This document shows, one piece after another, positions 5,458 to 21,018 of a stretch of DNA of 35,377 nt. Position numbers and translations under genes: made by a program. Every line of letters starts with the position of its first letter. Position 1 is the stretch's first letter. The notes under the pieces were generated by a model. It had not been told where the DNA came from. It saw nothing but the letters and a program-made list of their open reading frames with translations, and ran no database searches. This stretch comes from Bacteroidota bacterium (GTDB taxonomy: Bacteria > Bacteroidota > Bacteroidia > CAILMK01 > JACPUW01), in NCBI GenBank assembly GCA_020437725.1, contig JAGQWA010000002.1, positions 1-35,377 of the forward strand. The letters are read 5' to 3'.

Positions 5458-8043
5458 CTAAAACAAGCACCTAAACGTAAACATAGGAAAAAAGGTCATG
5501 TGGTAGAAAGGTGTGTACTGGCCTGTTCTAACATCATATTCTTGTGCAAACAAGTTTTTATGATTGGTTAGGTTTTGTAAATCCATAGCAAATTCTGTAT
5601 ATGCCTTCTTGTAATTTATTCTATAATAAATCTTCAAGTCGCTTCTAAAGTAGTTAGGGTGGCGTTGAGTAAATGCCAACTGTTGGTAATAAACCACTTC
5701 GTTAGCCATTTTTGACGCCGTTTCGTTAACGGGTGTGTATGGCTTTCCGCCGGCATAGGTAAGTTTAAAATCGGCGCCTACTGCTATCATTTTACCAAAC
5801 CATTTTTCATAGCCCACCAAGGCATTTGCGGTAAATTTCATATCAAATGCCGTGCTTCTCCATTTATCGTCATGCGCTTGGTATTCAGACCTAAAAGCAG
5901 AGCCATTTAGCATATAATAAAATCCTTTATCTAAGAATCGCTCTAAGGTTAGCTCAATTCCATAGTTTCGGCCAAGCCCTTCATTCACCAAACTATCAAG
6001 TTGTGGTATGTAAAAATCGGCGCCAACATTGCTCATTGAAAAAGTGCTGTTATGATCGGCTTCAATGGGTATTTTATAAAGGTGTTGGTAATAAGATTCA
6101 GCCTTCAACCTAAGATTTGAAGTAATATTATAGTCGTATGAAAATGTTAGATGATGCGCAGCGGAAAAATCTAGGTTTTTATTAGTAAGTACATCTTCGT
6201 TTCCTTGAGTGGTGGAAACAAAATAGATGTTGCGCGGTTGCATAGAATGGTGGTTACCATAAGATAGCGAAACGGCATGATTATGTGCTGCATTGTATCT
6301 TAAAGCAAAACGTGGCTCAAGTGCACTAGAGCCATTAAACAGCAGATACTGCCCGTGCAGACCAGCTCTAACCCTTAATTTCTGGGTAAGCAAATACTCA
6401 TCTTCTACATACAATCTGGCTAAACTCAACACATCATTTTTTTGGTGAATAGTATCTGTTCCACCCAAATAATTAATTGAGTAGCTGTTATAGTCTGTAT
6501 TATAACTATCCCATCTTAGGCCAGTTCTCAACTGGTTTTTACCTTTTCTTCTTTCTAATTTAGCGAAGAACGAATATTTGGTTTCGCCAGAGTTATCCGT
6601 ATAAACACGATTGCTGGCATCGCTGGTAATATTAAAAGTGTCTATTTGTGTTTTTACCTGATTATCTATAATAGAAATACCAGATTTAAGCACGGTGTAT
6701 TTAGCCAAACGATGTTGAACATTTGCCCCAGCCAAAAACAAATCTGAACCGGTTCTCAAATATTCACCAACTGAAGGCATATCGTCGGCATCTAAACTAT
6801 GGTCATCTAACTCAATAAAACTGGTTCCCCAAATACTCAATACCGAAAGGCTGGTTTTTGGGCTCAGATTAAAATTAAACTTTCCTGTAATATCCTGAAA
6901 CTTAGGCAATACGCCAAAATCAACCCCAAAAGCATCAACCACGTCTAAAAATGAGTAGCGATAAGTTAATGAGTAGGTGCCAATATTTTTCTTTTTTGAA
7001 AACGGCCCTTCTGCACCTAATTCAAAACCATTCCAACCGGTTTGAAAACGGTACTGCCTGCGCTCAGGATTAATATTCTTGGTATGTAGATCAAAAACTC
7101 CAGAAAGCGCGTTTCCATATTCTGAAGGAAAAGAACCCATTAGAAAATCAGAATTACCTAACATGTTCATGTTTAGCAAGGTAGTGGTGTTTCCGGTTAA
7201 GCCAATTCCGCCAAAATGATTCGGGTTTGGAATTTCAATATCATCTAACCGCCACTGAATTCCAATTGGAGAATTACCGCGAATGATGATATCATTTCTG
7301 TCATCTCTAGCCGGAAAAACGCCAGCAAAACTTCTGGCCATACGTGCTGGGTCGCCCAAAGTGCCTGCATATTTATTGGCTTCATCAACGGTAAACCCGC
7401 GTCCGCTGCCATAAGCCGAATTATTTTGGGTTTGTGCTTTGTCTTTTTCGGCCACAATGTGCACTCCTTGCAAAGCAGAAGCTTCTGGCTCTAACTCAAC
7501 CAGTAAATAAGGTTCTTGACCTGTATTAATTAGCACTGGTATAATAGAAGGCTTATATCCTAAATATGAAAACTGAATATTTAACCTGCCCAACGGTGCG
7601 GTAATGGCAAACTTTCCATTTATATCAGTTGAAGCTCCTAATTCAGGATGGTTTTCTAAATAAATGGTAGCAAAGGGAAGGCCTTCGCCTGTTTCAACAT
7701 CAACTACTTCGCCACGAATAGTTTGGTATATTTTTTCTGAAATAGGCTGTTGCGCTACCAATTTTGTAACCACATAGTAATTATCTATTAATTTAAAGCT
7801 GAGTTGGGTTTGTTGGCTCATGGCCGTAATAAGGTCGGCTAATTGGTAAGTACCTGCTTTTAATTCAATTTTCTGCGATGCGTCGAAATCTGATGATGTG
7901 TACACAAATCCTATTTCGGTTTGATTTTCAATGGTTACAAAAAGCTCTTTTAGTGTAACCGAATTGGTGTTGATTTTAATTTCTTGCGCAATGCCCAGGT
8001 TCACTATTAACAAGGCAATTGCAGTTTGTAAAATGCGTAACAT
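5458..8043 (-). CDS. TonB-dependent receptor/transducer with N-terminal STN signalling domain and carboxypeptidase-regulatory-like domain
   Basis: Signal peptide, then an STN-like block (VTLKELFVTIENQTEIGFVYTS...YQLADLITAMSQQTQLSF), then a CarboxypepD_reg-like block (IRGEVVDVETGEGLPFATIYL...TDINGKFAI), then a plug and a long beta-barrel ending in an aromatic residue. It sits downstream of fecR and the ECF sigma gene. Confidence 0.85.
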   Translation of the reverse strand: MLRILQTAIALLIVNLGIAQEIKINTNSVTLKELFVTIENQTEIGFVYTSSDFDASQKIELKAGTYQLADLITAMSQQTQLSFKLIDNYYVVTKLVAQQPISEKIYQTIRGEVVDVETGEGLPFATIYLENHPELGASTDINGKFAITAPLGRLNIQFSYLGYKPSIIPVLINTGQEPYLLVELEPEASALQGVHIVAEKDKAQTQNNSAYGSGRGFTVDEANKYAGTLGDPARMARSFAGVFPARDDRNDIIIRGNSPIGIQWRLDDIEIPNPNHFGGIGLTGNTTTLLNMNMLGNSDFLMGSFPSEYGNALSGVFDLHTKNINPERRQYRFQTGWNGFELGAEGPFSKKKNIGTYSLTYRYSFLDVVDAFGVDFGVLPKFQDITGKFNFNLSPKTSLSVLSIWGTSFIELDDHSLDADDMPSVGEYLRTGSDLFLAGANVQHRLAKYTVLKSGISIIDNQVKTQIDTFNITSDASNRVYTDNSGETKYSFFAKLERRKGKNQLRTGLRWDSYNTDYNSYSINYLGGTDTIHQKNDVLSLARLYVEDEYLLTQKLRVRAGLHGQYLLFNGSSALEPRFALRYNAAHNHAVSLSYGNHHSMQPRNIYFVSTTQGNEDVLTNKNLDFSAAHHLTFSYDYNITSNLRLKAESYYQHLYKIPIEADHNSTFSMSNVGADFYIPQLDSLVNEGLGRNYGIELTLERFLDKGFYYMLNGSAFRSEYQAHDDKWRSTAFDMKFTANALVGYEKWFGKMIAVGADFKLTYAGGKPYTPVNETASKMANEVVYYQQLAFTQRHPNYFRSDLKIYYRINYKKAYTEFAMDLQNLTNHKNLFAQEYDVRTGQYTPFYHMTFFPMFTFRCLF

Positions 8044-8095
8044 TTTATGATTAATTGTTTAATTAATTGACTATTGAAATAATAATTAGGTAAGA

Positions 8096-9022
8096 CTAAA
8101 GCGATTCTTCTATTTGATAATTATTGTCGCTCGTTTTCTTGAATTGAAGACCCTTAAGGGCACATATAGTTTTAAGAATGGTTTCTACATTGGGTTGTTT
8201 AAAATTTGCTGTAACCGTGTTTTGTTTCAACTGCTCGTTTTTAAAAGAAACTGAAACACCATATTGCCTTTTTATGATACCCGCCAATTCTGCAAAGCTG
8301 GTTTCGTTTAGAAACAAGTTGCCTTGTTGCCAAGCTAAAACTTCAGTGGCATTAATGTGGTTTTTACTGGCTAAAACACGTTTTAAATAATAGGTAGCTT
8401 GTTGGTTTGGTTCTAGTCTATACACTTTATCCAAACCATTTACTTCAACCAAGCCTTCAAGAAGAGTTACGGTTACTTTTTTTTTTTTTTTTTGAGCCTT
8501 TATGTTAAAAACGGTACCCAATACTTTGGTTTCAACACCGTTGGCATCAACTATAAAAGCGCGGTTTTTGTCTTTTGCAACATCAAAAACGGCTTCGCCT
8601 TTCAAGGATATCTTTCGTTCCGCTTCGTTAAATGTTTCAGGATATTCTATTGTTGACTGCGCATTGAGTGTAATGGAAGATCCATCAGCTAATTCAACTA
8701 TTTTGGTTTCGCCTACACCAGTAGATACCGCTATCGTTTTGCTGCTGAATATATTGGTAAAATAAAGCCCGAGTGCAATAGAACTAACTATTGCAATGCT
8801 TGCGGCCACTCTTAGCCAAGTTCTATTTGCCGGCTTTTTTATCTTTATCCGGTCTCTGAGTTCATTCTTTATAACCGCCTTTTCTTCTTCATTAAAAAAA
8901 GCTTCGGTGCTACTTTTTCGAAGCATTTCGTCAGCATATTCTTCTAACAACTGCAACTCATGTTCAGTAGCCGTGTTGTTCATGTATTTTTCGAGAAGAC
9001 TTTTATAGGATTGCTTGGTCAT
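8096..9022 (-). CDS. FecR family anti-sigma factor
   Basis: 308 aa. It has an N-terminal cytoplasmic domain, a single TM helix (WLRVAASIAIVSSIALGLYF), a periplasmic FecR block (LADGSSITLNAQSTIEY ... GEAVFDV) and a C-terminal domain. It lies between the ECF sigma gene and the TonB transducer gene. Confidence 0.9.
   Translation of the reverse strand: MTKQSYKSLLEKYMNNTATEHELQLLEEYADEMLRKSSTEAFFNEEEKAVIKNELRDRIKIKKPANRTWLRVAASIAIVSSIALGLYFTNIFSSKTIAVSTGVGETKIVELADGSSITLNAQSTIEYPETFNEAERKISLKGEAVFDVAKDKNRAFIVDANGVETKVLGTVFNIKAQKKKKKVTVTLLEGLVEVNGLDKVYRLEPNQQATYYLKRVLASKNHINATEVLAWQQGNLFLNETSFAELAGIIKRQYGVSVSFKNEQLKQNTVTANFKQPNVETILKTICALKGLQFKKTSDNNYQIEESL
8477..8493 (-). repeat. homopolymeric tract, T17 on the + strand (A17 on the fecR coding strand)
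   Basis: Counted directly: t at 8477-8493. It encodes Q-K-K-K-K-K (CAA + 5 x AAA) inside fecR. Confidence 0.95.
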
Positions 9023-9100
9023 AATGTGCGGTTATACAGGTATGTACCTAAAAGGCGCAAGCACACGTAAATCTTTTTGAAAAAAGTTTGAAAAAGTTTT

Positions 9101-9685
9101 CTAGTTCAAGAAATAAGTAAGAAGACCAATAGTTCCAAAATGTTGTGGTAACTGGTTTCTGAGCTGTTTTAAGGCATTTGAAATATGGGTTTCAACCGTT
9201 CGTTTGCTAAGATCCAATTGCTCGGCAATTTCGGCATTGGTTAAGTGCTCGTATCTACTCAATTCAAAAACTTGGCGGCACTTGGTGGGTAGAGATTGTA
9301 CTACGGCATCAATTTGTTTTTGTAGTTCTTCAGCATCTAAATGCTGGTCTGTTTCCACTTCAAAACCATGAATTTCTTCTACTTCTTGGTGCAATTGGCT
9401 TTTTTCGTCTCTAATCAGATTTAAAGAGCCAAACTTGGCAGCTCTGTGCAAATAGGCAGCAACATTTTCAATGTCTTTGCTTTTTCTATTTTTCCAAAAT
9501 GCCAAAAAAACATCTTGAACAACATCTTTGGCCAACTCTCTATTGGTGGTAAGTTTTACGGCAATGCTGTAAAGCGGCTCCCAATATTTCTCAAACAGCT
9601 CATAATAAGCTTTGTCGCTACCGCCTTGCATTAGCTGATACAGACGCTCATCAGAAACCGATATGTGGTTAAGCTTGGCAGCCAT
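9101..9685 (-). CDS. RNA polymerase ECF-type sigma-70 family factor
   Basis: 194 aa. Region 2 reads ELAKDVVQDVFLAFW and the region 4 HTH reads LTNAEIAEQLDLSKRTVETHISNALKQLR. The gene is upstream of fecR. Confidence 0.9.
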   Translation of the reverse strand: MAAKLNHISVSDERLYQLMQGGSDKAYYELFEKYWEPLYSIAVKLTTNRELAKDVVQDVFLAFWKNRKSKDIENVAAYLHRAAKFGSLNLIRDEKSQLHQEVEEIHGFEVETDQHLDAEELQKQIDAVVQSLPTKCRQVFELSRYEHLTNAEIAEQLDLSKRTVETHISNALKQLRNQLPQHFGTIGLLTYFLN

Positions 9686-10898: not shown

Positions 10899-12296
10899 CT
10901 ATTGAACAATTACCTTGCTTGTTTGAACTCCTAATTGGCTGTGTGATTCTATTACAAAAACACCTGTTGGAAGACTTATCTGGGCTTTGCTCTCACCTAC
11001 GTGCATTTGCTGTAAAACTTTCCCGCTCAAATCTTTTACAATTAGATGAAGGGGCTCTTTGTTATAAGACTCTAGGTTAACCGAACCTGTACTTGGATTT
11101 GGGTAAATGCTAATTAATGATGCCTTTTCTAATTCATTTGTACTAGCCGGCCATTGTCTATCCTGTTTCCATACCAAACGCATAACATCGGTTTGTTGTT
11201 TGGTAAAAGCTAGGGCGCAATCACCGCGAGCATAGTCCATGTAATTTTCTACCATGTCGGGCATATCGCCATCTTCGCCCCTGCCGCAAGTGTTCTTACC
11301 AATTTGGCAACCAAAATTGCTTGAAGAAGTACACAGCGGGGTATCATCAATAAAGTCGTCAACCGTGCAATCAGTTCCATCTCCCCAAATATGTCTTAAG
11401 CCCAGGTAATGCCCTACTTCGTGTACCACTATTTTACCCTGACTTGCTGACGAATTAAAGACACCATAAGGTGCTGGATATTTATTAGGATTGTTTGAAC
11501 CTACAGCCGGATAATGAATTAAAGCACCAGTTGCCGTTATGTCAGCTGGGAGAAATTCAACATCCCAAAACCTGTGGTTACTTGGCGGAGTAGCTAAACC
11601 CACAAAAACCAATTCTTCTAAATCATTAAACTCGGGTTCATATATGCGCAGATCGCCAATCCAGATGTTGATGTATCTCGTGGGATCCCATTCATCACTT
11701 CCACCATCAGCTGTACTGGTTATTCTAAATAAGTTTTGATAAAAGCTATCAGCTAGCCATTGTCTAATTTCTGCTTGCTCACTTTGTTTGTAGGGCAAGG
11801 TTCCACCAAAGTGCTTAACACTGGTATTTTGCCTTACAATACCAGTTGTTGTTTTGCCATTTGGGTCTTCGGTGGCCAAAACAAATTGAATATTGGCATT
11901 TCCTGCAATGGGCTTAAACTCATCACGCAAATTACCAGTATCTGCATGCGTATGGTTAAAGGCGTTGTTTAGTATTTCTAGTTGATTTTGAATAACAGAA
12001 TCTGGAATGTTCTCAGTTGAATCGTTATAAACCACATGAAAAACTACGGGTATAGTAAGCTGTTCTTGTCGCTTATAAGAAATCTGCTTTGACTGTTTGC
12101 TCATTTGCTCCAGGGCCTCATTTGATTTATCTAAAAAGCCAGGAGTTTTAGCATCTATATGCTCTATAATATGGTAGCTGCCACAACCTGCGGAATGAAC
12201 ATGTTCTTCAGAATTTTTGATTAATTGACCTATGGTCTGCCCCCTTGAAAAAGTAGCGATTATTAGAAAGGAAAGTAAGGTAGAAATGCTCTTCAT
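10899..12296 (-). CDS. M43 (pappalysin/cytophagalysin-like) zinc metalloprotease with T9SS C-terminal sorting domain
   Basis: Signal peptide and the metzincin motif HEVGHYLGLRHIWGD. The C-terminal SIYPNPSTGSVNLES...GVFVIESHSQLGVQTSKVIVQ is a T9SS CTD. Confidence 0.85.
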   Translation of the reverse strand: MKSISTLLSFLIIATFSRGQTIGQLIKNSEEHVHSAGCGSYHIIEHIDAKTPGFLDKSNEALEQMSKQSKQISYKRQEQLTIPVVFHVVYNDSTENIPDSVIQNQLEILNNAFNHTHADTGNLRDEFKPIAGNANIQFVLATEDPNGKTTTGIVRQNTSVKHFGGTLPYKQSEQAEIRQWLADSFYQNLFRITSTADGGSDEWDPTRYINIWIGDLRIYEPEFNDLEELVFVGLATPPSNHRFWDVEFLPADITATGALIHYPAVGSNNPNKYPAPYGVFNSSASQGKIVVHEVGHYLGLRHIWGDGTDCTVDDFIDDTPLCTSSSNFGCQIGKNTCGRGEDGDMPDMVENYMDYARGDCALAFTKQQTDVMRLVWKQDRQWPASTNELEKASLISIYPNPSTGSVNLESYNKEPLHLIVKDLSGKVLQQMHVGESKAQISLPTGVFVIESHSQLGVQTSKVIVQ

Positions 12297-12334: not shown

Positions 12335-13711
12335 TTAAGCGTTTTTGTTACTCGAATAAGTTAAAAGCCATTCGCCATATTGTTCCAATCTACCAGAAAG
12401 GTAATACGGCAAATTCAACAACTTATAATTTGTACCAGAAGGTGTTTTTACTTCTTCCAGCGAAAGTTTGTTTTGCAAAACACGAATTGCCACTTCAGAT
12501 TCTGAAATGTCTATGAATTGGTGCAAGGAGCGCAATCTGCCATGAGTACCCGATTTTATTTCTACAGGAATAACTTTCCCTTTTACCGAAATTAGGAGAT
12601 CAACTTCTGAATTGCTGTTGCTTTTTTCTCTAACCCAAAACATTGGTTTAAATAATGGGCTATGATGTTGGGCCCAATGTTCTTGAATTACTTGATGCTG
12701 AACAATTTTTCCACTTTGAAATCCCATTAAATCTTTTAACCCAATTAGTTGTTCTTGCCAACCGGATAGGTAGTTTAGCAAACCAGTGTCTAACAATTGA
12801 ATTCTAGGCTTTCTTTTAAAGCTGGGTTGCAGTGGCAGTTGATTAGACGTAGTTGGGTATAATAAATTCATAACACCAGCCTTTCCTAGTAAGGTAAAAG
12901 CTTCAGAGATTTCTCTTGACCGGTAATTTGAACTACCAAAACCAGCAAAGTTTATTCGGTCTTTTTCAAATATGGCCGTTTGAAAAACATGCCTTATCAC
13001 CTTCTTTTCAGTACTATTATTTGAATACTTTTCTGAATCTTCTATGTATGCCAGCCATAGGTTTTCATAGATACTTTTTACGCTAACCAAGCTTTCTTTT
13101 TGCAAATAGGTCTTAACGGCTTCTGGCATTCCGCCAACTAAAACGTATTCATGAAATGCATTTAGCAGAAGTTGATGTGCAAAATTGGGAATTGGAATTT
13201 GGTCTAATAATTCAGACAATTTTTTGTCTCCTTTAGCCCATAAAAATTCTTCGAAATCAAAAGGTTTAAGAACCCATTGCTCTACCCTGCCAACAGGAAA
13301 ACTTTCTATATCTTTCAAAACAATTTCTAAAAGAGAACCAGCAGCAATTACATGAAAATTAGGATGTTCTTCGTAGAAATATCTTAAATGAGCAATGGCT
13401 TGGGGCACTTGTTGTATCTCGTCTATAAATAACAGAACATTTTGTTCAGATCCTGAGATACTCGATCGGTAAAGTAACAACTCTACTATTTCATTTGTGC
13501 TGTTTAGGTCTAAAAAAATTGATGCATCCGAAGGTTTCTCGAGGTTGAGCATAATTTTATGCTCATATTCTTTGGCAAAATCTTTAACCAATGTTGACTT
13601 ACCCACTTGCCTTGTACCACGAAGAATTAGAGGCTTTCGTGCTGACGCCTTCTTCCAGTCAAGTAGTTTGTAAAAGAGTTTCCTTTTAAACATTTGGGCA
13701 TATTGGGACAC
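12335..13711 (-). CDS. AAA-family ATPase with C-terminal DUF4143 / PD-(D/E)xK-like domain
   Basis: Walker A GTRQVGKST and Walker B LLFIDEIQ. The C-terminal EVDLLISVKGKVIPVEIKSG resembles a restriction-endonuclease-like D...ExK motif. The track start at 13711 is GTG; the ATG at 13693 (MFKRKLFYKLLDW) is probably the true start. Confidence 0.8.
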   Translation of the reverse strand: MSQYAQMFKRKLFYKLLDWKKASARKPLILRGTRQVGKSTLVKDFAKEYEHKIMLNLEKPSDASIFLDLNSTNEIVELLLYRSSISGSEQNVLLFIDEIQQVPQAIAHLRYFYEEHPNFHVIAAGSLLEIVLKDIESFPVGRVEQWVLKPFDFEEFLWAKGDKKLSELLDQIPIPNFAHQLLLNAFHEYVLVGGMPEAVKTYLQKESLVSVKSIYENLWLAYIEDSEKYSNNSTEKKVIRHVFQTAIFEKDRINFAGFGSSNYRSREISEAFTLLGKAGVMNLLYPTTSNQLPLQPSFKRKPRIQLLDTGLLNYLSGWQEQLIGLKDLMGFQSGKIVQHQVIQEHWAQHHSPLFKPMFWVREKSNSNSEVDLLISVKGKVIPVEIKSGTHGRLRSLHQFIDISESEVAIRVLQNKLSLEEVKTPSGTNYKLLNLPYYLSGRLEQYGEWLLTYSSNKNA

Positions 13712-13726
13712 GCAAAGAAACAGGTT

Positions 13727-13811
13727 TTGTTACAGATACAGGGTAAATAGAGCTGAATCTTGTTACAGATACAGGGTATTTTTAGCCATTTTTTGTTACA
13801 AATACTGGGTA
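13727..13811. repeat. three 19-bp direct repeats at exact 33-bp spacing upstream of the ATPase gene
   Basis: ttgttacagatacagggta occurs at 13727-13745 and identically at 13760-13778. ttgttacaaatactgggta (2 mismatches) occurs at 13793-13811. Each unit contains the internal tandem TACAG-a-TACAG. Confidence 0.85.
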
Positions 13812-13964
13812 AACAGAATGCCAATTTTACCTTTCAAAGGTTTAAACAGCTACATTTTTGACCAAAAATCAGCTGGAAAATCAAGATTTCAATGAAAAAT
13901 TTTAAGATTAAAATTTGCCATGCACCCCACCAATAATTTTACACATATGAGTTGCCCTAACTAC

Positions 13965-14016: not shown

Positions 14017-15090
14017 ATGAACAATAAAAACAATCTCTTAGACGGTGTAAAAGAAGCCGTTATTCAACATACAGGCGAGGTAAAAATGCTCAGCGAAATG
14101 GCGCGAAATACGAGCCTAAGCTTAGTTGACAGAGTTGAAAGTTTTGAAGACATTATTAGTTTAGAAGTTGGTGATACGAATCTAACTCGTGCCAGAGCCC
14201 TTGAGCGCGAATACAACATAAGGCAGATTTATATTAAGTACGAAGGCAATAACCCTTCGGGCACGCAAAAAGACCGAATTGCTTTTGCACAGGTTTTAGA
14301 TGCGCTACGGCGTGGCTATACTACTATGGCATTAGCCACTTGCGGCAACTATGGCGTGGCTTGTGCCAATGCGGCCTACTTGGCTGGCATTACCTGCAAG
14401 GTTTATATGCCGGCGTCATACCATTCTAACCGGATTAAGGAAATTGAAAGTTTTGGTGCCGAATTAATTCGTTTAGATGGCAGTTACGAAGACGTGGTGG
14501 CTAAATCGAGCCAGATTGCGCAAGAAAATGAATGGTACGATGCCAATCCTGGTGGTGCAAATACGCCCATGCAAATTGCAGCATACGCCGAAATAGCCAA
14601 CGAAATTTACGACCAACTGCGCGATGCTCCTAAATTCTTGGCTTGCCCAGTTTCTAATGGTACCGTTTTGGCTGGCATTTATCGCGGCTTTGTGTCGTTG
14701 TATAAACGCGGAAAAACTTCAAGAATTCCAGTTTTTGTGGCGGGCTCTTCGGCCAATAAAAACCCCATTATTTCTTCGTTTAAAAAAGGCCTAGAAAGCT
14801 GCGAAGACATTGACCCTAAAAAAATTAAGGAAACAGTCATAAATGAAGCACTCATTAACTGGCATAGTTTTGATGGCGAAGAAGCGCTATATGCCTTGCG
14901 CCAAACCAATGGTTATGCATCGCACGTAACCGATAAGCAACTTAAAGAAATGAGCAGCTATTTGCACAAAAAAGAAGGCATGCGCATTTTACCGTGCTCA
15001 TGCGCTGGGCTTATTGCTTTACTTGATGTACGCAAAGAAAAAAATCTAATAAACGACCGCTTTGTAGCCGTAATTACGGCTAAATACTAA
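14017..15090 (+). CDS. PLP-dependent enzyme, threonine-synthase/tryptophan-synthase-beta fold (fold type II)
   Basis: YIKYEGNNPSGTQKDRIA resembles the ThrC-type PLP-lysine motif (F-E-G-x-N-P-T-G-S-F-K-D-R). About 357 aa. First gene of the operon. Confidence 0.8.
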   Translation: MNNKNNLLDGVKEAVIQHTGEVKMLSEMARNTSLSLVDRVESFEDIISLEVGDTNLTRARALEREYNIRQIYIKYEGNNPSGTQKDRIAFAQVLDALRRGYTTMALATCGNYGVACANAAYLAGITCKVYMPASYHSNRIKEIESFGAELIRLDGSYEDVVAKSSQIAQENEWYDANPGGANTPMQIAAYAEIANEIYDQLRDAPKFLACPVSNGTVLAGIYRGFVSLYKRGKTSRIPVFVAGSSANKNPIISSFKKGLESCEDIDPKKIKETVINEALINWHSFDGEEALYALRQTNGYASHVTDKQLKEMSSYLHKKEGMRILPCSCAGLIALLDVRKEKNLINDRFVAVITAKY

Positions 15091-15101: not shown

Positions 15102-16163
15102 ATGACAAAACCATCTATTGACGGCAATGCCATTGTGTATGCCAATAATGCCTTTAACACCCCAAATGGCAAAACCGCACATGGCCTGGTGCGCTTTACC
15201 GAACGCTTTAATGTAGTGGCAGTTATAGATGAAAACTACGCTGGCCAAGATGCTGGCAATGTGCTTGATAGCAAACTAAATGGCATTCCTATTTTTAGTA
15301 GTTTAACCGAAGCTGTAAAACATGTTGAAGCCAACAATTTTGTAATTGGTTTGGCGCCCGATGGCGGAAGACTACCCAATGAAGCCCGAGCAACCATAGC
15401 ACAAGCGCTTGAGCTTAAAATGAACATAACTAGTGGCCTTCACGACTTTTTATACAAAGACGAGCATTTAATGCAATTGGCTTCGCAAAATGGCTGCACC
15501 ATTAGAGATGTTAGAAAAACACCAGATAGAGATCAACTTCACTTTTTTGAAGGAAAAATTGAAGAAGTTGATTGCCTAAACATTGCTGTTTTAGGAACCG
15601 ATTCGGCTATTGGAAAGCGTACCACCGCTTGGATTATTGTGCACGGATTTAGAAATGCCGGGCTAAAAGCCGAAATGATTGGCACAGGCCAAACCGCCTG
15701 GATGCAAGGTGCCAAATACAGCATGATTATGGACAGCTGCATAAACGATTTTGTTTCGGGCGAAATAGAACATGCCGTTCACGAAGCTTGGAAAAATGAA
15801 AAACCCGATTTAATTGTAATAGAAGGACAAGGCAGTTTAATGAACCCTGCCTACCCCGGTGGTTTTGAAATTTTAGCTGCAGGAAGACCTGATTTTGTTA
15901 TTCTTCAACACGCGCCAAAACGAGTTGAATACGATGGTTTTCCAGGTTACAAACTGCATTCAATTAAAGAACAGATTAATGCCATTGAAGTAATTTCTGG
16001 CAAAAAAGTAATAGCCATTACCTTAAACCACGAAGAAATGAAACCTGAAGAAATTGAACCTACCTGCCAGCAAATTACTCAAGAAACAGGCTTGCCTGCT
16101 TTCGATGTGCTGGCTCATGGTTCTGAAGCTTTGGTTCAACTTCTTAAATCGCATATAAAGTGA
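15102..16163 (+). CDS. DUF1611 domain-containing protein
   Basis: The blocks NGKTAHGLVRF, VVAVIDENYAGQDAG, GIPIF, IGLAPDGGRLP, VLGTDSAIGKRTT, VIEGQGSLMNPAYPG and ITLNHEEM follow the conserved DUF1611 pattern as I recall it. The gene is 11 nt from the upstream gene. Confidence 0.8.
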   Translation: MTKPSIDGNAIVYANNAFNTPNGKTAHGLVRFTERFNVVAVIDENYAGQDAGNVLDSKLNGIPIFSSLTEAVKHVEANNFVIGLAPDGGRLPNEARATIAQALELKMNITSGLHDFLYKDEHLMQLASQNGCTIRDVRKTPDRDQLHFFEGKIEEVDCLNIAVLGTDSAIGKRTTAWIIVHGFRNAGLKAEMIGTGQTAWMQGAKYSMIMDSCINDFVSGEIEHAVHEAWKNEKPDLIVIEGQGSLMNPAYPGGFEILAAGRPDFVILQHAPKRVEYDGFPGYKLHSIKEQINAIEVISGKKVIAITLNHEEMKPEEIEPTCQQITQETGLPAFDVLAHGSEALVQLLKSHIK

Positions 16164-17665
16164 CTCGGTTAGCAGACTTTTTGGTTATTGATACCTTAAA
16201 AATTAGCAACCTGGTAATAAAACCCAAACGGGTATCAGCTGATTATACAGTTACCAAACCAGATGGTTCTATTGCCACCAATACGCTCTTTTATACCTAC
16301 TCAGAAAAGCTGTTTACCAAAAGCCAAGACGATAAAAACTTGGCGAGCATGATGGTGGCGCAAGTAGCCTTTAACTATGGACTATTCTGCAAAACCATTG
16401 AGTTTGACGGATATTTTGATGCCACTGACCAGGCCTTTATTCAAAGCATGATAGAGAATACGAGCAGAGAAATTATAACCAATAAGCTTCTGGTTGAAAA
16501 CCCTTTTCTGCTGCCGCCTTTTGATGGTTTGCAAATTGAACCCCAAAAGAAATATACCCAAGCCCAAATAGTATTTACCCAAAAAGCCATTTCCACCAAA
16601 AAAGCATTTTTTGAAAATACTGAACCCAATTTCAATAAATACGCCATTTTAAGCAGCGGCGGAAAAGACAGTTTGCTCAGCTACGGACTAATAAAAGAGT
16701 TTGCTGAACCACATCCCATTTTTGTTAATGAAGCGGGCCGGCATTGGTTCACTGCTATTAATTCATACCGACATTTTAAGGAGCACGAACCCAATACAGG
16801 CAAAGCCTGGTGCAATAGCGACCGTATTTTTAACTGGATGCTAAAACAGCTTCCGTTCATTAAACCCAATTACGCTTCTATTAGAGCAGATATTTACCCA
16901 GTACGACTTTGGACAGTTTCGGTGTTTTTATTTGGTGTTTTACCCATTGCCTTAAAAAAAGGACTTGGAAATATTATAGTTGGCGATGAGTATGATACTA
17001 CAGAAAGAAAGACCACCAGCGGCATTACGCATTATAGTGCGCTATACGATCAGAGTAAGTATTTCGACAATGCCTTAACACGCTACTATCATAAAAAAGG
17101 ATGGAACTTGGTTCAATTCTCCATGCTCAGAAGCATGTCAGAGTTATTAATAATGAAAGTACTGCTTAAGCGCTACCCACATTTGCAAATGCACCAAACC
17201 AGTTGCCACGCCGCCCACGAGCACGAAAAACGCATGTACCCCTGTGGCAATTGCGAAAAATGTAGGCGAATTGTGGGCATGATAACTGCATTGGGCGAAG
17301 ACCCAAGAAACTGCGGCTATACTTCAACCCAAATAGACAAGGCATTAGAAAAACTGGCAAATGCCAGCGTAAAACAAATAGGATCAGACGCGGCACAGCT
17401 TTATTATTTATTAGTTAAAAACCAGAAAATACCCCTTAACCAATTCACCCAAAAATTGGCTAAAGAACACCCAAGAGTAATGCAATTGCGATTTGAAAAT
17501 GAGCGCAGTAATTTACAAGATATGCCGGCTCATGTACGCAAACCATTGTTCTCTATTCTAAGCCAATACAGCAATGGCGCCGTTTCTTTATCTAATAAAG
17601 AGTGGGCACCAGTAGAAATTACCGATACTTTTCTTAACCAAACAGCATATAAATTCAATGATTAA
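16160..17665 (+). CDS. PP-loop (adenine nucleotide alpha-hydrolase superfamily) ATPase, QueC-like Zn-Cys cluster, unknown N-terminal domain
   Basis: SGGKDS at residues 166-171 (nt 16655-16672). C-x12-C-x2-C-x2-C at C349/C362/C365/C368 (SCHAAHEHEKRMYPCGNCEKCRR). The GTG start overlaps the upstream stop (GTGA). I recognise no motif in the first 160 aa or so. Confidence 0.65.
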   Translation: MTRLADFLVIDTLKISNLVIKPKRVSADYTVTKPDGSIATNTLFYTYSEKLFTKSQDDKNLASMMVAQVAFNYGLFCKTIEFDGYFDATDQAFIQSMIENTSREIITNKLLVENPFLLPPFDGLQIEPQKKYTQAQIVFTQKAISTKKAFFENTEPNFNKYAILSSGGKDSLLSYGLIKEFAEPHPIFVNEAGRHWFTAINSYRHFKEHEPNTGKAWCNSDRIFNWMLKQLPFIKPNYASIRADIYPVRLWTVSVFLFGVLPIALKKGLGNIIVGDEYDTTERKTTSGITHYSALYDQSKYFDNALTRYYHKKGWNLVQFSMLRSMSELLIMKVLLKRYPHLQMHQTSCHAAHEHEKRMYPCGNCEKCRRIVGMITALGEDPRNCGYTSTQIDKALEKLANASVKQIGSDAAQLYYLLVKNQKIPLNQFTQKLAKEHPRVMQLRFENERSNLQDMPAHVRKPLFSILSQYSNGAVSLSNKEWAPVEITDTFLNQTAYKFND

Positions 17666-18455
17666 CAACATTAAGAAAGACTATTTGTGGGAAACCCAAA
17701 CATGGAAAGAAATAGAAGAGCGACTCAAAATAGTTGATACCGCCATTTTACCATGTGGTGCCATTGAACAACATGGCCCGCATTTGCCAGTTGATGTTGA
17801 TTACTATGATGCCGCCTATATGGCCAAATGTGTTGCCGAAAAATGTGCTGATCCAAAACCATTTGTTCTACCACCAATTCCATTTGGGGTTTCTTACCAT
17901 CATAGCGCATTTAAAGGCACCATTAGCGTTACAAACAATGCACTATCGGCCTTTATTTATGATATAGGAATGAGCCTGGCACATAATGGAATAAGGAAAA
18001 TAGTAATACTAAACGGCCACGGCGATAATAAACCCACACTTACTTATGCCGCACAAATGATTAACCGCGATGCCAAAATTTTTGTTTGCGTTGACACCGG
18101 CGAAACCAGTGATGTTGACCTTTATAATCTCATTAATACGCCTAACGATATTCATGCCGGCGAAATTGAAACCAGTACCACTTTAGCACTGCGCCCCGAT
18201 TTGGTGAACATGGATTTAGCCGTTGACGAAACCCTAGATTTAGATAATGAATATCTAGATTTTACATCTGACCGTGGAGTTAGTTGGTATGTGCATACGC
18301 AACGTATTTCAAACTCAGGCGTAATGGGCAATGCTAAAATTGCCACCGCCGAAAAAGGAAAGCTAATGTGGGATATTTCAATAAAAAAAATGGTAGAATT
18401 TGTTGAGAGCATTAAGAACACTCCACTAGAAAAACTCTACCAAAACCGCTATTAA
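17658..18455 (+). CDS. creatininase family metal-dependent amidohydrolase
   Basis: LPCGAIEQHGPHLPVDVD, ILNGHGDN and IHAGEIETS are the family metal-ligand blocks. The start overlaps the upstream stop by 8 nt (ATGATTAA). Confidence 0.9.
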   Translation: MINNIKKDYLWETQTWKEIEERLKIVDTAILPCGAIEQHGPHLPVDVDYYDAAYMAKCVAEKCADPKPFVLPPIPFGVSYHHSAFKGTISVTNNALSAFIYDIGMSLAHNGIRKIVILNGHGDNKPTLTYAAQMINRDAKIFVCVDTGETSDVDLYNLINTPNDIHAGEIETSTTLALRPDLVNMDLAVDETLDLDNEYLDFTSDRGVSWYVHTQRISNSGVMGNAKIATAEKGKLMWDISIKKMVEFVESIKNTPLEKLYQNRY

Positions 18456-18457
18456 TT

Positions 18458-19522
18458 GTGATACTTTCTAAAGTTGAATACTTTGAGCTAGAACTTGAAA
18501 TGGCTAGCGGCTACACCATTGCTTATGAAACCATAAGCCACGCCAAAAATGTAGTGCTAAAACTAACAACCAACACTGGTTTGGTAGGTTGGGGATGTGC
18601 CGCACCCGACCAAGAAATTACCCACGAAACCAGCCAAACTGTAATAAATAATCTTGAACAGCATATAATACCAATGCTACAAGGGCAAGACCCTTTTCAA
18701 TTGGCATTGTTCAATAAAAAATTAAGAGATACTGGCATAAAAATGCCCTCAGCAATGGCAATGACCAATATTGCCCTGCACGATCTTTTGGCTAGAAAAG
18801 CCCAACTACCACTCTATAAACTAATGGGTGGCTTTAGAAATAAAATTGCTACTAGCATAACAATAGGAATAATGCCTTTGAACGATACCTTGGCATTAGG
18901 AAAAGAATATTGGCAACAAGGCTTTAAAATAATAAAACTAAAGGGTGGAATTGAAGTAAATGAAGACATTGAAAAGATTTTTAAACTTAAAGAAGAACTA
19001 GGTTTTGAATTAATTCTGCGGTTTGATGCCAACCAAGGATACACAGTAGAAGACTCAATAAAATTTATTGAAGCGACTAAACAAGCTGAAATTGAGTTAT
19101 TTGAGCAACCAACTGCCTTTGATAATCTGCAAGCACTAAAGCAGGTAACTAACAGAGTATCAGTTCCTGTAATGGCCGACGAAAGTATTCGCTCACTTAG
19201 CGATGTTTATCATCTTTCTAAACACGATGCCAGCGACATGATAAACATTAAAATAATGAAAGTAGGTGGGCTAACTGAAGCGGCTCACATTAATTCAGTG
19301 GCCAAAGCAGCTGGCATGGAAGTTATGGTGGGATGCCTTGATGAATGTGCACTCGGTATCTCAGCCGGATTGCATTTTGCACTGAGTAGGCCAAACGTAG
19401 AATTTGCTGATTTAGACGGTCATTTAGACTTTACAAACGACCCTTTTAAAAATCTTTTTCAACTAAAAGATGGCTGGCTTTACCCATCTGAGCATGATGG
19501 TTTGGGAAAAGTGGACTTTTAA
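18458..19522 (+). CDS. enolase-superfamily dipeptide epimerase-type enzyme (L-Ala-D/L-Glu epimerase family)
   Basis: IIKLKGG, LRFDANQGYT, ELFEQP, VMADES, INIKIMKVGG and MVGCLDE match the catalytic Lys / metal ligand / second Lys layout of the MLE subgroup. The GTG start is 2 nt after the upstream stop. Confidence 0.85.
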   Translation: MILSKVEYFELELEMASGYTIAYETISHAKNVVLKLTTNTGLVGWGCAAPDQEITHETSQTVINNLEQHIIPMLQGQDPFQLALFNKKLRDTGIKMPSAMAMTNIALHDLLARKAQLPLYKLMGGFRNKIATSITIGIMPLNDTLALGKEYWQQGFKIIKLKGGIEVNEDIEKIFKLKEELGFELILRFDANQGYTVEDSIKFIEATKQAEIELFEQPTAFDNLQALKQVTNRVSVPVMADESIRSLSDVYHLSKHDASDMINIKIMKVGGLTEAAHINSVAKAAGMEVMVGCLDECALGISAGLHFALSRPNVEFADLDGHLDFTNDPFKNLFQLKDGWLYPSEHDGLGKVDF

Positions 19523-19536
19523 ATATCAAAGCAAAA

Positions 19537-19905
19537 ATGAAAGCAATCATTATCATTATTTTACTTTTAATTAGTAATACTTTTATGACATTAGCTTGGT
19601 ACGGACACTTGAAGTTTGCTGACATGAAATGGTTTAGCAAACTTGGTTTAGTATCAATTATTCTTATAAGTTGGGGCATTGCCTTATTTGAATACATCTT
19701 TCAAGTTCCTGCCAATAAATATGGCTTTAATCAAAATGGTGGGCCTTTTTCTCTAATTCAACTAAAAGTAATTCAAGAAATAATTACCCTTGTGGTTTTT
19801 GCAGTGTTCACATTATTGGTGTTTAAATCAGAAACATTTAGAATAAATCATTTAATCTCATTTACATTAATTGTAGGTGCTGTTTACTTTATGTTCAAAA
19901 AATAA
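19537..19905 (+). CDS. DMT-superfamily small membrane protein (DUF486)
   Basis: 122 aa with 4 TM helices. NTFMTLAWYGHLKF ... ISWGIALFEYIFQVPAN ... QLKVIQEIITL matches the DUF486 pattern as I recall it. Confidence 0.8.
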   Translation: MKAIIIIILLLISNTFMTLAWYGHLKFADMKWFSKLGLVSIILISWGIALFEYIFQVPANKYGFNQNGGPFSLIQLKVIQEIITLVVFAVFTLLVFKSETFRINHLISFTLIVGAVYFMFKK

Positions 19906-20903
19906 TTAATTCTAAACTCAGAAGGATTACAACCTTTCCAACGTTTAAAACTGCGATTAAAAGCGGCCGCATCTGTATAACCCAATTGAAAAGCAATTTC
20001 AGTAATGCTTAATTCCTGTTGTTGTAGAAGTCGAATGGCAAAATCTTGTTTCACTTCATCAACCAGCTGCTTAAACACCGTGCCTTCGTTTTTTAATCTT
20101 CGCTGAAACGTTCTTAAGCTCAGGTTTAAATGTGCGGCAACATCATTTATTCCTGGAAAATGGTTTTGCCCTAACCTTATAATCGTTTGCCTAACTTGAT
20201 TAGAGAATTGGGCCTTTTTTCTTGATTTTGAAACTTCTTCAGCATGCTGCACCAAAAGTCTAAGTAATTGATAGTTGGCCGTTATTATTGGCGCTTCAAC
20301 ATGTTCTTTACTTAAATAAATGGCCAGTTCATTTTGGTTGAAAACCACTGGGCATTTAAAAACCCTGTAGTATTCGGTAGCTGAAGCAGGCTCAGGCCAT
20401 GTAACATGAATTTTTTCAGGGCAATGCTTATTAAATGTAAGGCTTAAATATTCCCTTATAGTAAAAGCGATAAGGCCTTCAGTGGTTTGCCTAAAGGCCG
20501 ATTCTGATTCAGTTGGCCAATTGGCAATGGGTTCTATGAGCAATTTGTACCCATTAGGAATAGCAACCAACCGCATGGGCAAATGACTACAACCCAAATT
20601 GGCATATTGGCAACAAAACTGCAGGGCTTGTTCAACCGTGGTACTACTTTGGGTTATTTGTCCTATTAATCCTGAAGCTGAAATATTCATGCTTTCAGCA
20701 CCGTGAAGCCCCAAAAATTCGTCATCAGTTTGGGTTTGGGCCAATTCCATAACCGCATTGTAAGCAGGGCTTTCAATGGTGGTATTCTCTAGGAGAAGTT
20801 CTTCTTTGGTTAAACCCGTTGCCACAATCAAATCTTGCTTATTGGCACCTTGCTCAACGGCAAATTCTATAATGTTGTAAACAAACCTTCCATTAAAAGC
20901 CAT
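19884..20903 (-). CDS. AraC family transcriptional regulator (N-terminal ligand-binding domain + C-terminal HTH)
   Basis: The C-terminal dual HTH reads INDVAAHLNLSLRTFQRRLKNEG ... ITEIAFQLGYTDAAAFNRSFKRWKG. The track ORF starts at the TTG at 20942; the ATG at 20903 (MAFNGRFVYNIIEF) is more likely. The 3' end overlaps the DMT gene by 22 nt in convergent orientation. Confidence 0.9.
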   Translation of the reverse strand: MAFNGRFVYNIIEFAVEQGANKQDLIVATGLTKEELLLENTTIESPAYNAVMELAQTQTDDEFLGLHGAESMNISASGLIGQITQSSTTVEQALQFCCQYANLGCSHLPMRLVAIPNGYKLLIEPIANWPTESESAFRQTTEGLIAFTIREYLSLTFNKHCPEKIHVTWPEPASATEYYRVFKCPVVFNQNELAIYLSKEHVEAPIITANYQLLRLLVQHAEEVSKSRKKAQFSNQVRQTIIRLGQNHFPGINDVAAHLNLSLRTFQRRLKNEGTVFKQLVDEVKQDFAIRLLQQQELSITEIAFQLGYTDAAAFNRSFKRWKGCNPSEFRINYFLNIK

Positions 20904-21018
20904 GCATCGAATGTAGGTAAATCCAGTGGCACCAAATGACAAGTATTTGTCATTCTACGCCAAATGAGTTGGCTGTTCTCGCTTCCACATTTGTATCATC
21001 AAATTAAAACACAAACAA

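Follow-up and report, generated by a model that had tools for sequence, protein, structure and literature searches.

What reaction is carried out by a 501-amino-acid (aa) protein that has the nucleotide-binding loop of PP-loop ATPases, carries no family name, and is encoded within a cassette of enzymes that point toward amino-acid metabolism? We addressed this question for an open reading frame (ORF), here called the target, on contig JAGQWA010000002.1 of the Bacteroidota assembly GCA_020437725.1. The 35,377-nucleotide (nt) stretch that was analyzed is called the window, and all positions refer to it. Our best explanation, to which we assign a probability of about 0.5, is that the target is a PP-loop epimerase resembling MurL, an ATP-dependent L-to-D epimerase, and that it operates in an amino-acid cassette. 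The components of this explanation differ in strength. It is very probable that the target is a PP-loop adenylating enzyme with a QueC-like fold that is related to MurL, and somewhat probable that its substrate is the carboxylate of an amino acid, an N-acyl amino acid, or a dipeptide. We propose stereoinversion as the outcome only tentatively. The features of the target are as follows.

16160..17665, + strand: target ORF, 501 aa, a putative three-domain QueC/MurL-like PP-loop enzyme (from ORF translation, family search, and AlphaFold2 model).
16160..16609, + strand: N-terminal domain, residues 1 to 150, predicted beta-beta-beta-alpha-beta-alpha; the model of the isolated domain has a predicted local distance difference test score (pLDDT) of 86.
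16622..17329, + strand: central PP-loop ATP-pyrophosphatase core, residues ∼155 to 390, predicted QueC-like fold (Foldseek, hhalign).
16655..16672, + strand: PP-loop motif SGGKDS, residues 166 to 171; SSGGK[DE]SL is near-invariant in divergent members.
17204..17263, + strand: predicted four-Cys metal knuckle, C349-x12-C362-x2-C365-x2-C368, with the pattern S-C-H-x10-P-C-G-x-C-x-K-C and fixed spacing in 21 divergent members.
17330..17662, + strand: C-terminal domain, residues ∼391 to 501, predicted to be mostly helical; P456 and R460 are conserved, and it has no recognizable relative.

The gene borders agree with those given in a preliminary description made from the sequence alone. The GTG start codon (16160 to 16162) overlaps the TGA stop codon of the upstream DUF1611 gene (16161 to 16163) in the tetranucleotide GTGA, and the TAA stop codon (17663 to 17665) ends 8 nt within a creatininase-family ORF that starts with ATG at 17658. 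Homologues align from residue 1 and the identical 4-nt overlap occurs in other genomes, and we consider the GTG start sound on this comparative evidence. A large protein search with the target returned 2654 homologous 90%-identity clusters of ∼500 aa. The top 120 clusters were all ∼500 aa in length and 59 to 74% identical to the target, and all were named “hypothetical” except for one Joint Genome Institute “predicted PP-loop superfamily ATPase.” When 1.84 billion cluster representatives were searched exhaustively with a profile, only 495 matched at E ≤ 1e-3. Relatives were found in at least 588 species-level genomes (one genome per species; 185,579 species), which is a patchy distribution. 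Given these 2654 clusters and at least 588 genomes, the target is judged to be a real gene and not a chance reading frame. The best 80 genomes belong to marine Bacteroidota (Flavobacteriaceae, Marinilabiliales, Saprospiraceae, and Cytophagales), Desulfobacterota, SAR324, and Calditrichota, and some archaea carry the family as well. Overall, the family is compact but widespread, is unnamed, and has neither a Pfam or NCBIfam model nor a structure. A tblastn search of 72,556 plasmids found no copy of the target, and a mobile or plasmid origin was rejected on this basis.

Conservation was assessed in 21 full-length divergent members that share 18 to 47% identity with the target. The PP-loop motif and the four-Cys cluster on which the preliminary description had built its assignment are present as described and, as it had asked to have checked, are kept in homologues down to 18% identity. 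SGGK[DE]S is retained in 19 of the 21 members; C349, C362, and C365 are invariant (21/21), C368 is found in 20/21, and in every member 12 residues lie between the first and the second Cys. The target has Cys at residues 77, 218, 349, 362, 365, 368, and 385, of which C218 and C385 are conserved among close relatives only (C218 in 2 of the 21 divergent members). Further family motifs within the core are N-E-S-G-x-H-W (190 to 196), W-[ST]-N-x-D-R (217 to 222), D-x-Y-P-[IV]-[RQ]-L (244 to 250), G-x-E-[YF]-D (275 to 279), and G-[IV]-x-H-Y-x-G-x-Y-D-Q-[ST] (288 to 299). The conserved residues outside the core are N72, F76, D90, and R103 (N-terminal domain) and P456 and R460 (C-terminal domain). Two full-length members, P0143 and P0225, have degenerate PP-loops (VESGTND and LNAAPEA) and keep the Cys cluster; these may be non-catalytic paralogues.

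An AlphaFold2 model of the full-length target, built on a 20-sequence alignment (pLDDT, 84.8; predicted template modeling score, 0.86), shows three domains. The modeled core is a Rossmann-like alpha/beta domain that opens with the PP-loop and closes with the Cys knuckle. SGGKDS comes after a strand at residues 157 to 165, as expected for the superfamily pattern of SGGxD[ST] after the first beta-strand, and aligns with the PP-loops of MJ0690, TtuA, MnmA, and Cap9. Foldseek comparison of the full model with the PDB gave nothing at E ≤ 1e-3. The best PDB match was Cap9, the QueC-family protein of the type IV cyclic oligonucleotide-based antiphage signaling system (CBASS) (9nto_B; E = 6e-3; probability, 0.99; template modeling score [TM], 0.55 on Cap9), followed by argininosuccinate synthetase (ArgG), GMP synthetase, LarE, and MnmA. 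Only matches from BFVD reached E ≤ 1e-3. Most of the top nine there carry the annotation 7-cyano-7-deazaguanine synthase (QueC), come from phages, and align over their full length (E = 2e-5 to 1.5e-2; TM, 0.5 to 0.7), the best phage QueC proteins at E = 2e-5 to 9e-5. Pfam and NCBIfam searches with the target gave no match at E ≤ 0.01, and the sole Pfam hint was a subthreshold match of residues 323 to 436 to DUF6395 (E = 0.085). Searches of PDB sequences with phmmer and with the family profile returned nothing significant. Thus, neither a hidden Markov model nor a structure of any characterized family matched strongly over the full length, in keeping with the novelty originally claimed. PP-loop enzymes were the sole recurring structural and sequence matches, and, based on the model, we place the core in the PP-loop ATP pyrophosphatase superfamily with a QueC-like fold.

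By sequence, the closest characterized relative is MurL. This enzyme needs ATP and Mg, forms AMP, and epimerizes a C-terminal residue unidirectionally from L to D; it has been reviewed as an enzyme that “lacks known conserved domains,” and adenylation of the alpha-carboxylate, epimerization, and hydrolysis have been proposed as its steps (PMC5808125, PMC8788868). There is no MurL structure in the PDB, and we compared MurL through the NCBIfam model NF041275 (EC 5.1.1.23; 447 positions; 700-bit cutoff). Five divergent members of the target family match this model. In the strongest match, residues 107 to 331 of P0243 (23% identical to the target) align with model positions 130 to 354 over 225 residues (E = 7.2e-10; 37.9 bits), and P0132, P0130, P0131, and P0122 match over the block that runs from YDQS to the Cys cluster (E = 1e-4 to 4e-2). 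The Cys clusters of all five fall on model positions 311 to 331 and the PP-loop of P0243 falls near position 145 (both interpolated coordinates), and YDQS falls on positions 257 to 259 in P0243, P0130, and P0131, whose matches span it. Because the five independent matches are mutually consistent, we consider the homology to MurL real but remote. The relation is best described as homology and not orthology, with the target placed outside the MurL family. The two are similar in overall size and both occur in amino-acid or peptide contexts, and the ATP-to-AMP chemistry of MurL is exactly that which fits a PP-loop enzyme.

MurL and the target family differ in their distribution: MurL is found in Xanthomonadales, some Alphaproteobacteria, and rare actinomycetes, whereas the target family occurs in Bacteroidota, Desulfobacterota, Calditrichota, and archaea. 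Six relatives were found when P0243 was used as the query, none of which provided a link to a named protein. Two remote relatives of ∼455 aa, P0288 and P0289 (the latter from a Thorarchaeota metagenome-assembled genome), have an S-F-G-K-D-S loop and a C-x(10-12)-C-x2-C-x2-C cluster and may represent a further sister subfamily toward MurL.

The genetic context of the target is a compact cassette of enzyme genes, which includes the following partners.

14017..15090, + strand: threonine-synthase-like pyridoxal phosphate (PLP) enzyme (PALP), an obligate partner; Pfam PALP, and NCBIfam PRK06381 at 395 bits versus a 266-bit cutoff.
15102..16163, + strand: DUF1611 protein, DgcN-like, an obligate and translationally coupled partner; Pfam DUF1611_N and DUF1611, and DgcN at 155 bits versus a 480-bit cutoff.
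17658..18455, + strand: creatininase-fold metallo-amidohydrolase, translationally coupled; Pfam Creatininase at 230 bits, full length.
18458..19522, + strand: MR/MLE enolase-superfamily enzyme, dipeptide-epimerase-like; Pfam MR_MLE_N and MR_MLE_C, closest to 3JVA, 3RIT, and 1JPM.

From PALP to a DMT_6 gene beyond the MR/MLE gene, the spacings in the window are 12, −4, −8, 2, and 14 nt. The MR/MLE enzyme matches the dipeptide epimerase 3JVA at E = 2e-63 and the DgcA model at 134 bits (cutoff, 400). In a survey of 85 loci, the genes for PALP, DUF1611, the target, creatininase, and MR/MLE occurred in the same order in 66, and the exceptions were mostly truncated contigs. Calditrichota, Lutibacter, and Phaeodactylibacter have an identical cassette within differing flanks. 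In nearly all contexts, the gene immediately before the target is DUF1611, and the triad of PALP, DUF1611, and target persists at ∼30% identity, including on an apparently archaeal contig. In these ∼30%-identity contexts, the creatininase and MR/MLE genes are missing from the cassette, with an MR/MLE gene near it in locus L106. A GNAT acetyltransferase gene adjoins the target in three contexts (L086, L087, and L106). PALP, DUF1611, and the target therefore form the conserved core. The two partner proteins of this core, PALP and DUF1611, are equally constant and show stronger conservation than the target does, which leaves the earlier suggestion that the target is the specificity-defining step of the operon unsupported.

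Proteins in which the target is fused to creatininase recur in at least four clusters (P0121, P0123/P0284, P0169, and P0170). In the P0121 cluster, 12 full-length copies of 795 aa derive from independent samples, and three other clusters, of which two are distant, have the same architecture; these fusions are genuine. At locus L114 (417 to 5373), the distant P0170 fusion has no visible PALP or DUF1611 gene upstream, where the contig ends ∼400 nt away, and is followed by genes for a 421-aa unknown protein and then a CofD-family protein; L114 is a different pathway context for the two-domain unit. Fusions of DUF1611 with the target and of the target with a methyltransferase were singletons and may be frameshift artifacts.

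The nearest described pathway logic is that of DgcN-DgcA, which converts D-Glu to L-Glu via the N-acetyl derivative, with DgcN as the D-Glu N-acetyltransferase and DgcA as the N-acetyl-D-Glu racemase. Like this system, the cassette joins a DUF1611 protein, an MR/MLE enzyme, and an amidohydrolase in a logic of N-acylation, racemization, and deacylation. The N-succinyl-amino-acid racemase pathway follows the same order of acylation, racemization, and deacylation. Unlike DgcN and DgcA, the DUF1611 and MR/MLE proteins of the cassette score far below the respective cutoffs, the hydrolase has a creatininase fold, and PLP and PP-loop enzymes are added, which are the more constant components of the cassette. 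The context also sets the target apart from MurL. MurL is paired in genomes with MurD2 in organisms that lack glutamate racemase, whereas the target is accompanied by genes for PALP, DUF1611, creatininase-fold, and MR/MLE proteins, and a UDP-N-acetylmuramic acid peptide is unlikely to be its substrate. These partners suggested the substrate class proposed above: the DUF1611 protein is related to DgcN, the MR/MLE enzyme is related to dipeptide epimerases and DgcA, and the hydrolase is an amidohydrolase. A literature search found nothing on DUF1611 with creatininase, DUF6395, COG3367, or the combination of partners.

Based on the fold, the MurL relationship, and the cassette, we propose the following sequence of events. 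The SGGK(D/E)S loop would bind ATP-Mg, and the target would adenylate a small substrate derived from an amino acid at a carboxylate, probably at the alpha-carboxylate of an N-acyl amino acid or of a dipeptide-like molecule, with the departure of pyrophosphate (PPi); by analogy with established PP-loop chemistry, ATP would be converted to AMP and PPi. This substrate would come from the co-conserved pair of the threonine-synthase-like PLP enzyme and the DgcN-like DUF1611 protein. The acyl-adenylate could labilize the alpha-proton, plausibly via a 5(4H)-oxazolone, allowing the stereocenter to invert before the activated species is hydrolyzed. Formation of a 5(4H)-oxazolone is the classical route by which activated N-acyl amino acids racemize. 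The coupled or fused creatininase-fold cyclic amidohydrolase is a candidate for the ring-opening or hydrolytic step, and the N- and C-terminal domains may form part of the substrate pocket or serve as docking sites for the partners. A more specific version, in which the cassette is a previously unrecognized ATP-driven unidirectional stereoinversion system for a free, N-acylated, or dipeptide-bound amino acid, where DUF1611 N-acylates the PLP product, the target adenylates it, and the hydrolase opens the oxazolone stereoselectively, is doubtful. The original proposal of an adenylating enzyme with a novel domain thus holds at its core, whereas its list of outcomes (amide or nitrile formation and thiolation) omitted stereoinversion, which is the reaction of MurL.

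Several observations weigh against a MurL-like epimerase. The target itself has no match to NF041275 at E ≤ 1. The best score in the family is 38 bits against the 700-bit cutoff, and therefore the function of MurL is not transferable to the target. No Mur ligase (MurD2) is encoded in any of the 85 loci, and the surveyed flanks and Rfam searches provided no transporter, regulator, or riboswitch as a clue to the substrate. The same cassette encodes a reversible MR/MLE epimerase, which makes a second, ATP-driven epimerase less obviously needed, and the idea of an oxazolone opened by the hydrolase comes from chemical reasoning only. By structure, the closest proteins are amide- and nitrile-forming QueC enzymes, and sequence comparison with single templates does not separate the PP-loop families from one another.

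We examined the QueC relationship more closely by comparison with the published QueC signature, which comprises SGGxDS, YxQxHxxE, VPxRN, YPDC, and C(x)8CxxCxxC (PMC13329287). With a profile of nine sequences (Escherichia coli QueC and eight phage QueCs), hhalign aligned residues 155 to 389 of the target family co-linearly with QueC residues 1 to 226 (P = 3.3e-4; probability, 38%). The alignment paired SGGKDS with SGGQDS, NEAGRHW with YGQRH, YPVRL with VPxRN, LYDQS with YPDC, and SCH...PCGNCEKC with TCY...CGxCxxC. The order of elements is the same in both, from the PP-loop through a His motif after beta2, P-x-R, and Y-D to a C-terminal Cx(n)CxxCxxC knuckle. Of the signature, only the PP-loop is truly retained: where QueC has its substrate motifs YxQxHxxE, VPxRN, and YPDC, the target family has NESGxHW, YP[IV][RQ]L (R in 11/21), and YDQ[ST], and only a His, a Pro, a Tyr, and an Asp are common to both sets. 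The Cys knuckle occupies the position of the QueC Zn site and has the CGxCxxC signature, with a first spacer fixed at x12 versus x8 in QueC. The Cys cluster of the preliminary description thus agrees with QueC in position, with Cap9 and QueC as the best folds, and not in spacing, and Zn is its putative metal.

The Pfam QueC model PF06508 did not match the target and matched 2 of the 21 divergent members (best E = 0.057). DUF6395 matched 9 of the 21, weakly (best E = 0.0015), and a “QueC-like” PHROG matched weakly at residues 347 to 373. The cassette lacks a 7-deazaguanine context (queD, queE, queF, and tgt, or the Cap10 and QatB partners), and, unlike QueC, the target has an extra 150-aa N-terminal domain and an extra 110-aa C-terminal domain. 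By these sequence criteria, we do not consider the target a member of PF06508, and its position outside this family explains why it was missed by a 2026 survey of the QueC superfamily, in which MurL and the partner families go unmentioned. In control alignments of the family profile with one template per PP-loop family, the hhalign scores were 33.9 for TtcA, 32.7 for GuaA, 30.7 for MnmA, 25.6 for QueC, 21.5 for ArgG, and 20.0 for TilS. These scores have no specificity, and we rejected a sequence-based placement among the PP-loop clades. Because single-sequence scores do not discriminate, the affinity to QueC rests on structure and motif order.

These comparisons bear on the main alternative, in which the target is a ligase of the QueC/Cap9 type, which would join an adenylated carboxylate (or amide carbonyl) to ammonia or an amine to form an amide, amidine, or nitrile, with the creatininase-fold enzyme acting on another amide bond of the same molecule. 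The top structural matches, QueC and Cap9, both form amides; the co-linearity with QueC extends over its full length and includes the position of the Zn knuckle; and the weak QueC matches in Pfam (2/21) and PHROGs point the same way. Most PP-loop enzymes of the QueC fold transfer nitrogen (PMC13329287), and the singleton methyltransferase fusion hints at small-molecule tailoring. We nevertheless regard such a ligase as unlikely, as YxQxHxxE, VPxRN, and YPDC are not retained, neither the protein nor the cassette has a glutaminase or ammonia-delivering domain, the N-terminal domain lacks a conserved Cys, and the closest characterized relative by sequence is MurL and not QueC.

The identity of the metal bears on another alternative, a [4Fe-4S] sulfur insertase of the TtcA/TtuA/LarE kind, in which an Fe-S cluster held by the Cys would pass sulfide to the adenylated carbonyl to form a thiocarboxylate or thioamide, with sulfide possibly freed from cysteine by the PLP enzyme. 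SGGKDS is identical to the loop of TtcA and TtuA, TtuA is among the few PDB sequence matches, and TtcA had the top single-sequence hhalign score (33.9), in an alignment that sets the family P-C-x-x-C, at an equivalent place past the alpha/beta core, on the PCNLC Fe-S ligand of TtcA. Against this stands the number and arrangement of ligands: TtcA and TtuA have three dispersed Cys, including a central CxxC after the third strand, whereas the target has four conserved, clustered Cys in a QueC-like C-x(n)-C-x2-C-x2-C knuckle, W-[ST]-N-x-D-R in place of the central CxxC, and a C218 that is not conserved. Structure ranks QueC and Cap9 above LarE and MnmA, and TtuA falls outside the top 50. The cassette encodes no sulfur carrier, cysteine desulfurase, or rhodanese and, unlike TtcA and TtuA, the target has no tRNA context. 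A sulfur insertase is accordingly improbable, and the metal of the knuckle is most likely structural Zn, by analogy with QueC.

The terminal domains proved as difficult to place as had been reported, with no significant Pfam, NCBIfam, PDB, or fold match for either. For the C-terminal domain, Pfam, PDB, and Foldseek searches gave no significant match. The model of the N-terminal domain consists of three long beta-strands followed by a helix, one more strand, and a second, long helix; in isolation, it matched nothing in the PDB at E ≤ 1e-3 with Foldseek. Its weak matches (EndoV, the C-terminal half of UvrC, Argonaute PIWI, reverse transcriptase RNase H, and glucokinase; TM, 0.3 to 0.39) have only a beta3-alpha-beta-alpha, RNase-H-like topology in common. 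None of its Cys residues is conserved across the 21 divergent members, and a glutaminase domain was rejected, as there is neither a conserved Cys nor an N-terminal-nucleophile-type start. The presence of nucleic-acid enzymes (EndoV, UvrC, Argonaute, and RNase H) among the weak fold matches raises the idea of tRNA or nucleic-acid modification, in which the RNase-H-like domain would bind RNA and the PP-loop core would activate a base, and many PP-loop enzymes with Cys clusters do act on tRNA. We consider this very improbable, given the low TM values with nothing at E ≤ 1e-3, the patchy distribution (at least 588 of 185,579 species), the strict placement of the target within a small-molecule enzyme cassette and its fusion to an amidohydrolase, and the finding of no THUMP, PUA, or other RNA-binding domain.

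Returning to the MurL-like epimerase, we conclude that the target represents a new family within the PP-loop/QueC-fold enzymes, and that this family offers a plausible structural frame for MurL. As an enzyme, MurL is an antibiotic target whose mechanism has been described as unclear, and a PP-loop would explain its formation of AMP; the conserved His, Asp, and four Cys positions become candidates for catalytic residues. If ATP-driven stereoinversion is correct for the target, MurL itself would be a QueC-fold PP-loop enzyme with a four-Cys metal site, and the two would constitute a new functional class of PP-loop enzymes, the adenylating epimerases. The conserved core and the fused hydrolase point to an amino-acid pathway, possibly of D-amino-acid metabolism, in abundant marine heterotrophs. 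There is also a warning for annotation: an NCBIfam model that scores above its cutoff automatically names the PLP partner “threonine synthase.” This is probably an over-annotation and misleading, as the gene is locked in a non-threonine operon.

Two further genes follow the cassette in the window.

19537-19905, + strand: DMT_6 (DUF486) membrane protein, 14 nt past the MR/MLE gene.
19884-20942, − strand: AraC-family regulator, convergent, overlapping the 3′ end of the DMT_6 gene.

Both are specific to this genome and were not seen in the other loci of the 85-locus survey. Pfam annotation of 110 flanking ORFs (54 downstream, 56 upstream) gave a heterogeneous picture with no conserved sixth gene, regulator, or transporter. 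An osmolyte or channel role, suggested by MscS/CorA and Trk-type neighbors, was rejected, as the flank survey gave it no backing. No Rfam model reached its gathering score in the window and upstream there were only chance microRNA matches, nhmmer and k-mer comparison of 70 upstream regions revealed no conserved element, and a promoter and terminator scan did not exceed shuffled sequences. The intergenic region upstream of PALP (13725 to 13817) contains three direct copies of a 27-nt repeat, TTTTGTTACAGATACAGGGTAAATAGA, with 81 to 100% identity and a spacing of exactly 33 nt, followed by a 14-nt inverted repeat (13892 to 13921). The 27-nt repeats may be operator or iteron-like sites; in other genomes, the region preceding the cassette does not conserve them.

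Next to these repeats, an AAA_14/DUF4143 ATPase gene (12335 to 13711, − strand) matches the PADLOC candidate system PDC-S01 over its full length (E = 9e-168). This unrelated neighbor, together with Cap9 as the top PDB fold match, would be the basis for viewing the target as a Cap9/QatC-like protein-conjugating enzyme of an anti-phage system. That view is hardly credible, as PADLOC matched none of the cassette proteins, the partners are metabolic, and the cassette is conserved while its flanks, including the PDC-S01-like ATPase gene, are not. Farther upstream (5458 to 9685 and 10899 to 12296, both − strand), the window encodes an extracytoplasmic function (ECF) sigma factor, a FecR anti-sigma factor, a CarboxypepD_reg (TonB-receptor-like) protein, and an M43 metallopeptidase that carries a type IX secretion system (T9SS) sorting tail. 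These genes confirm the Bacteroidota host and appear to be unrelated to the cassette.

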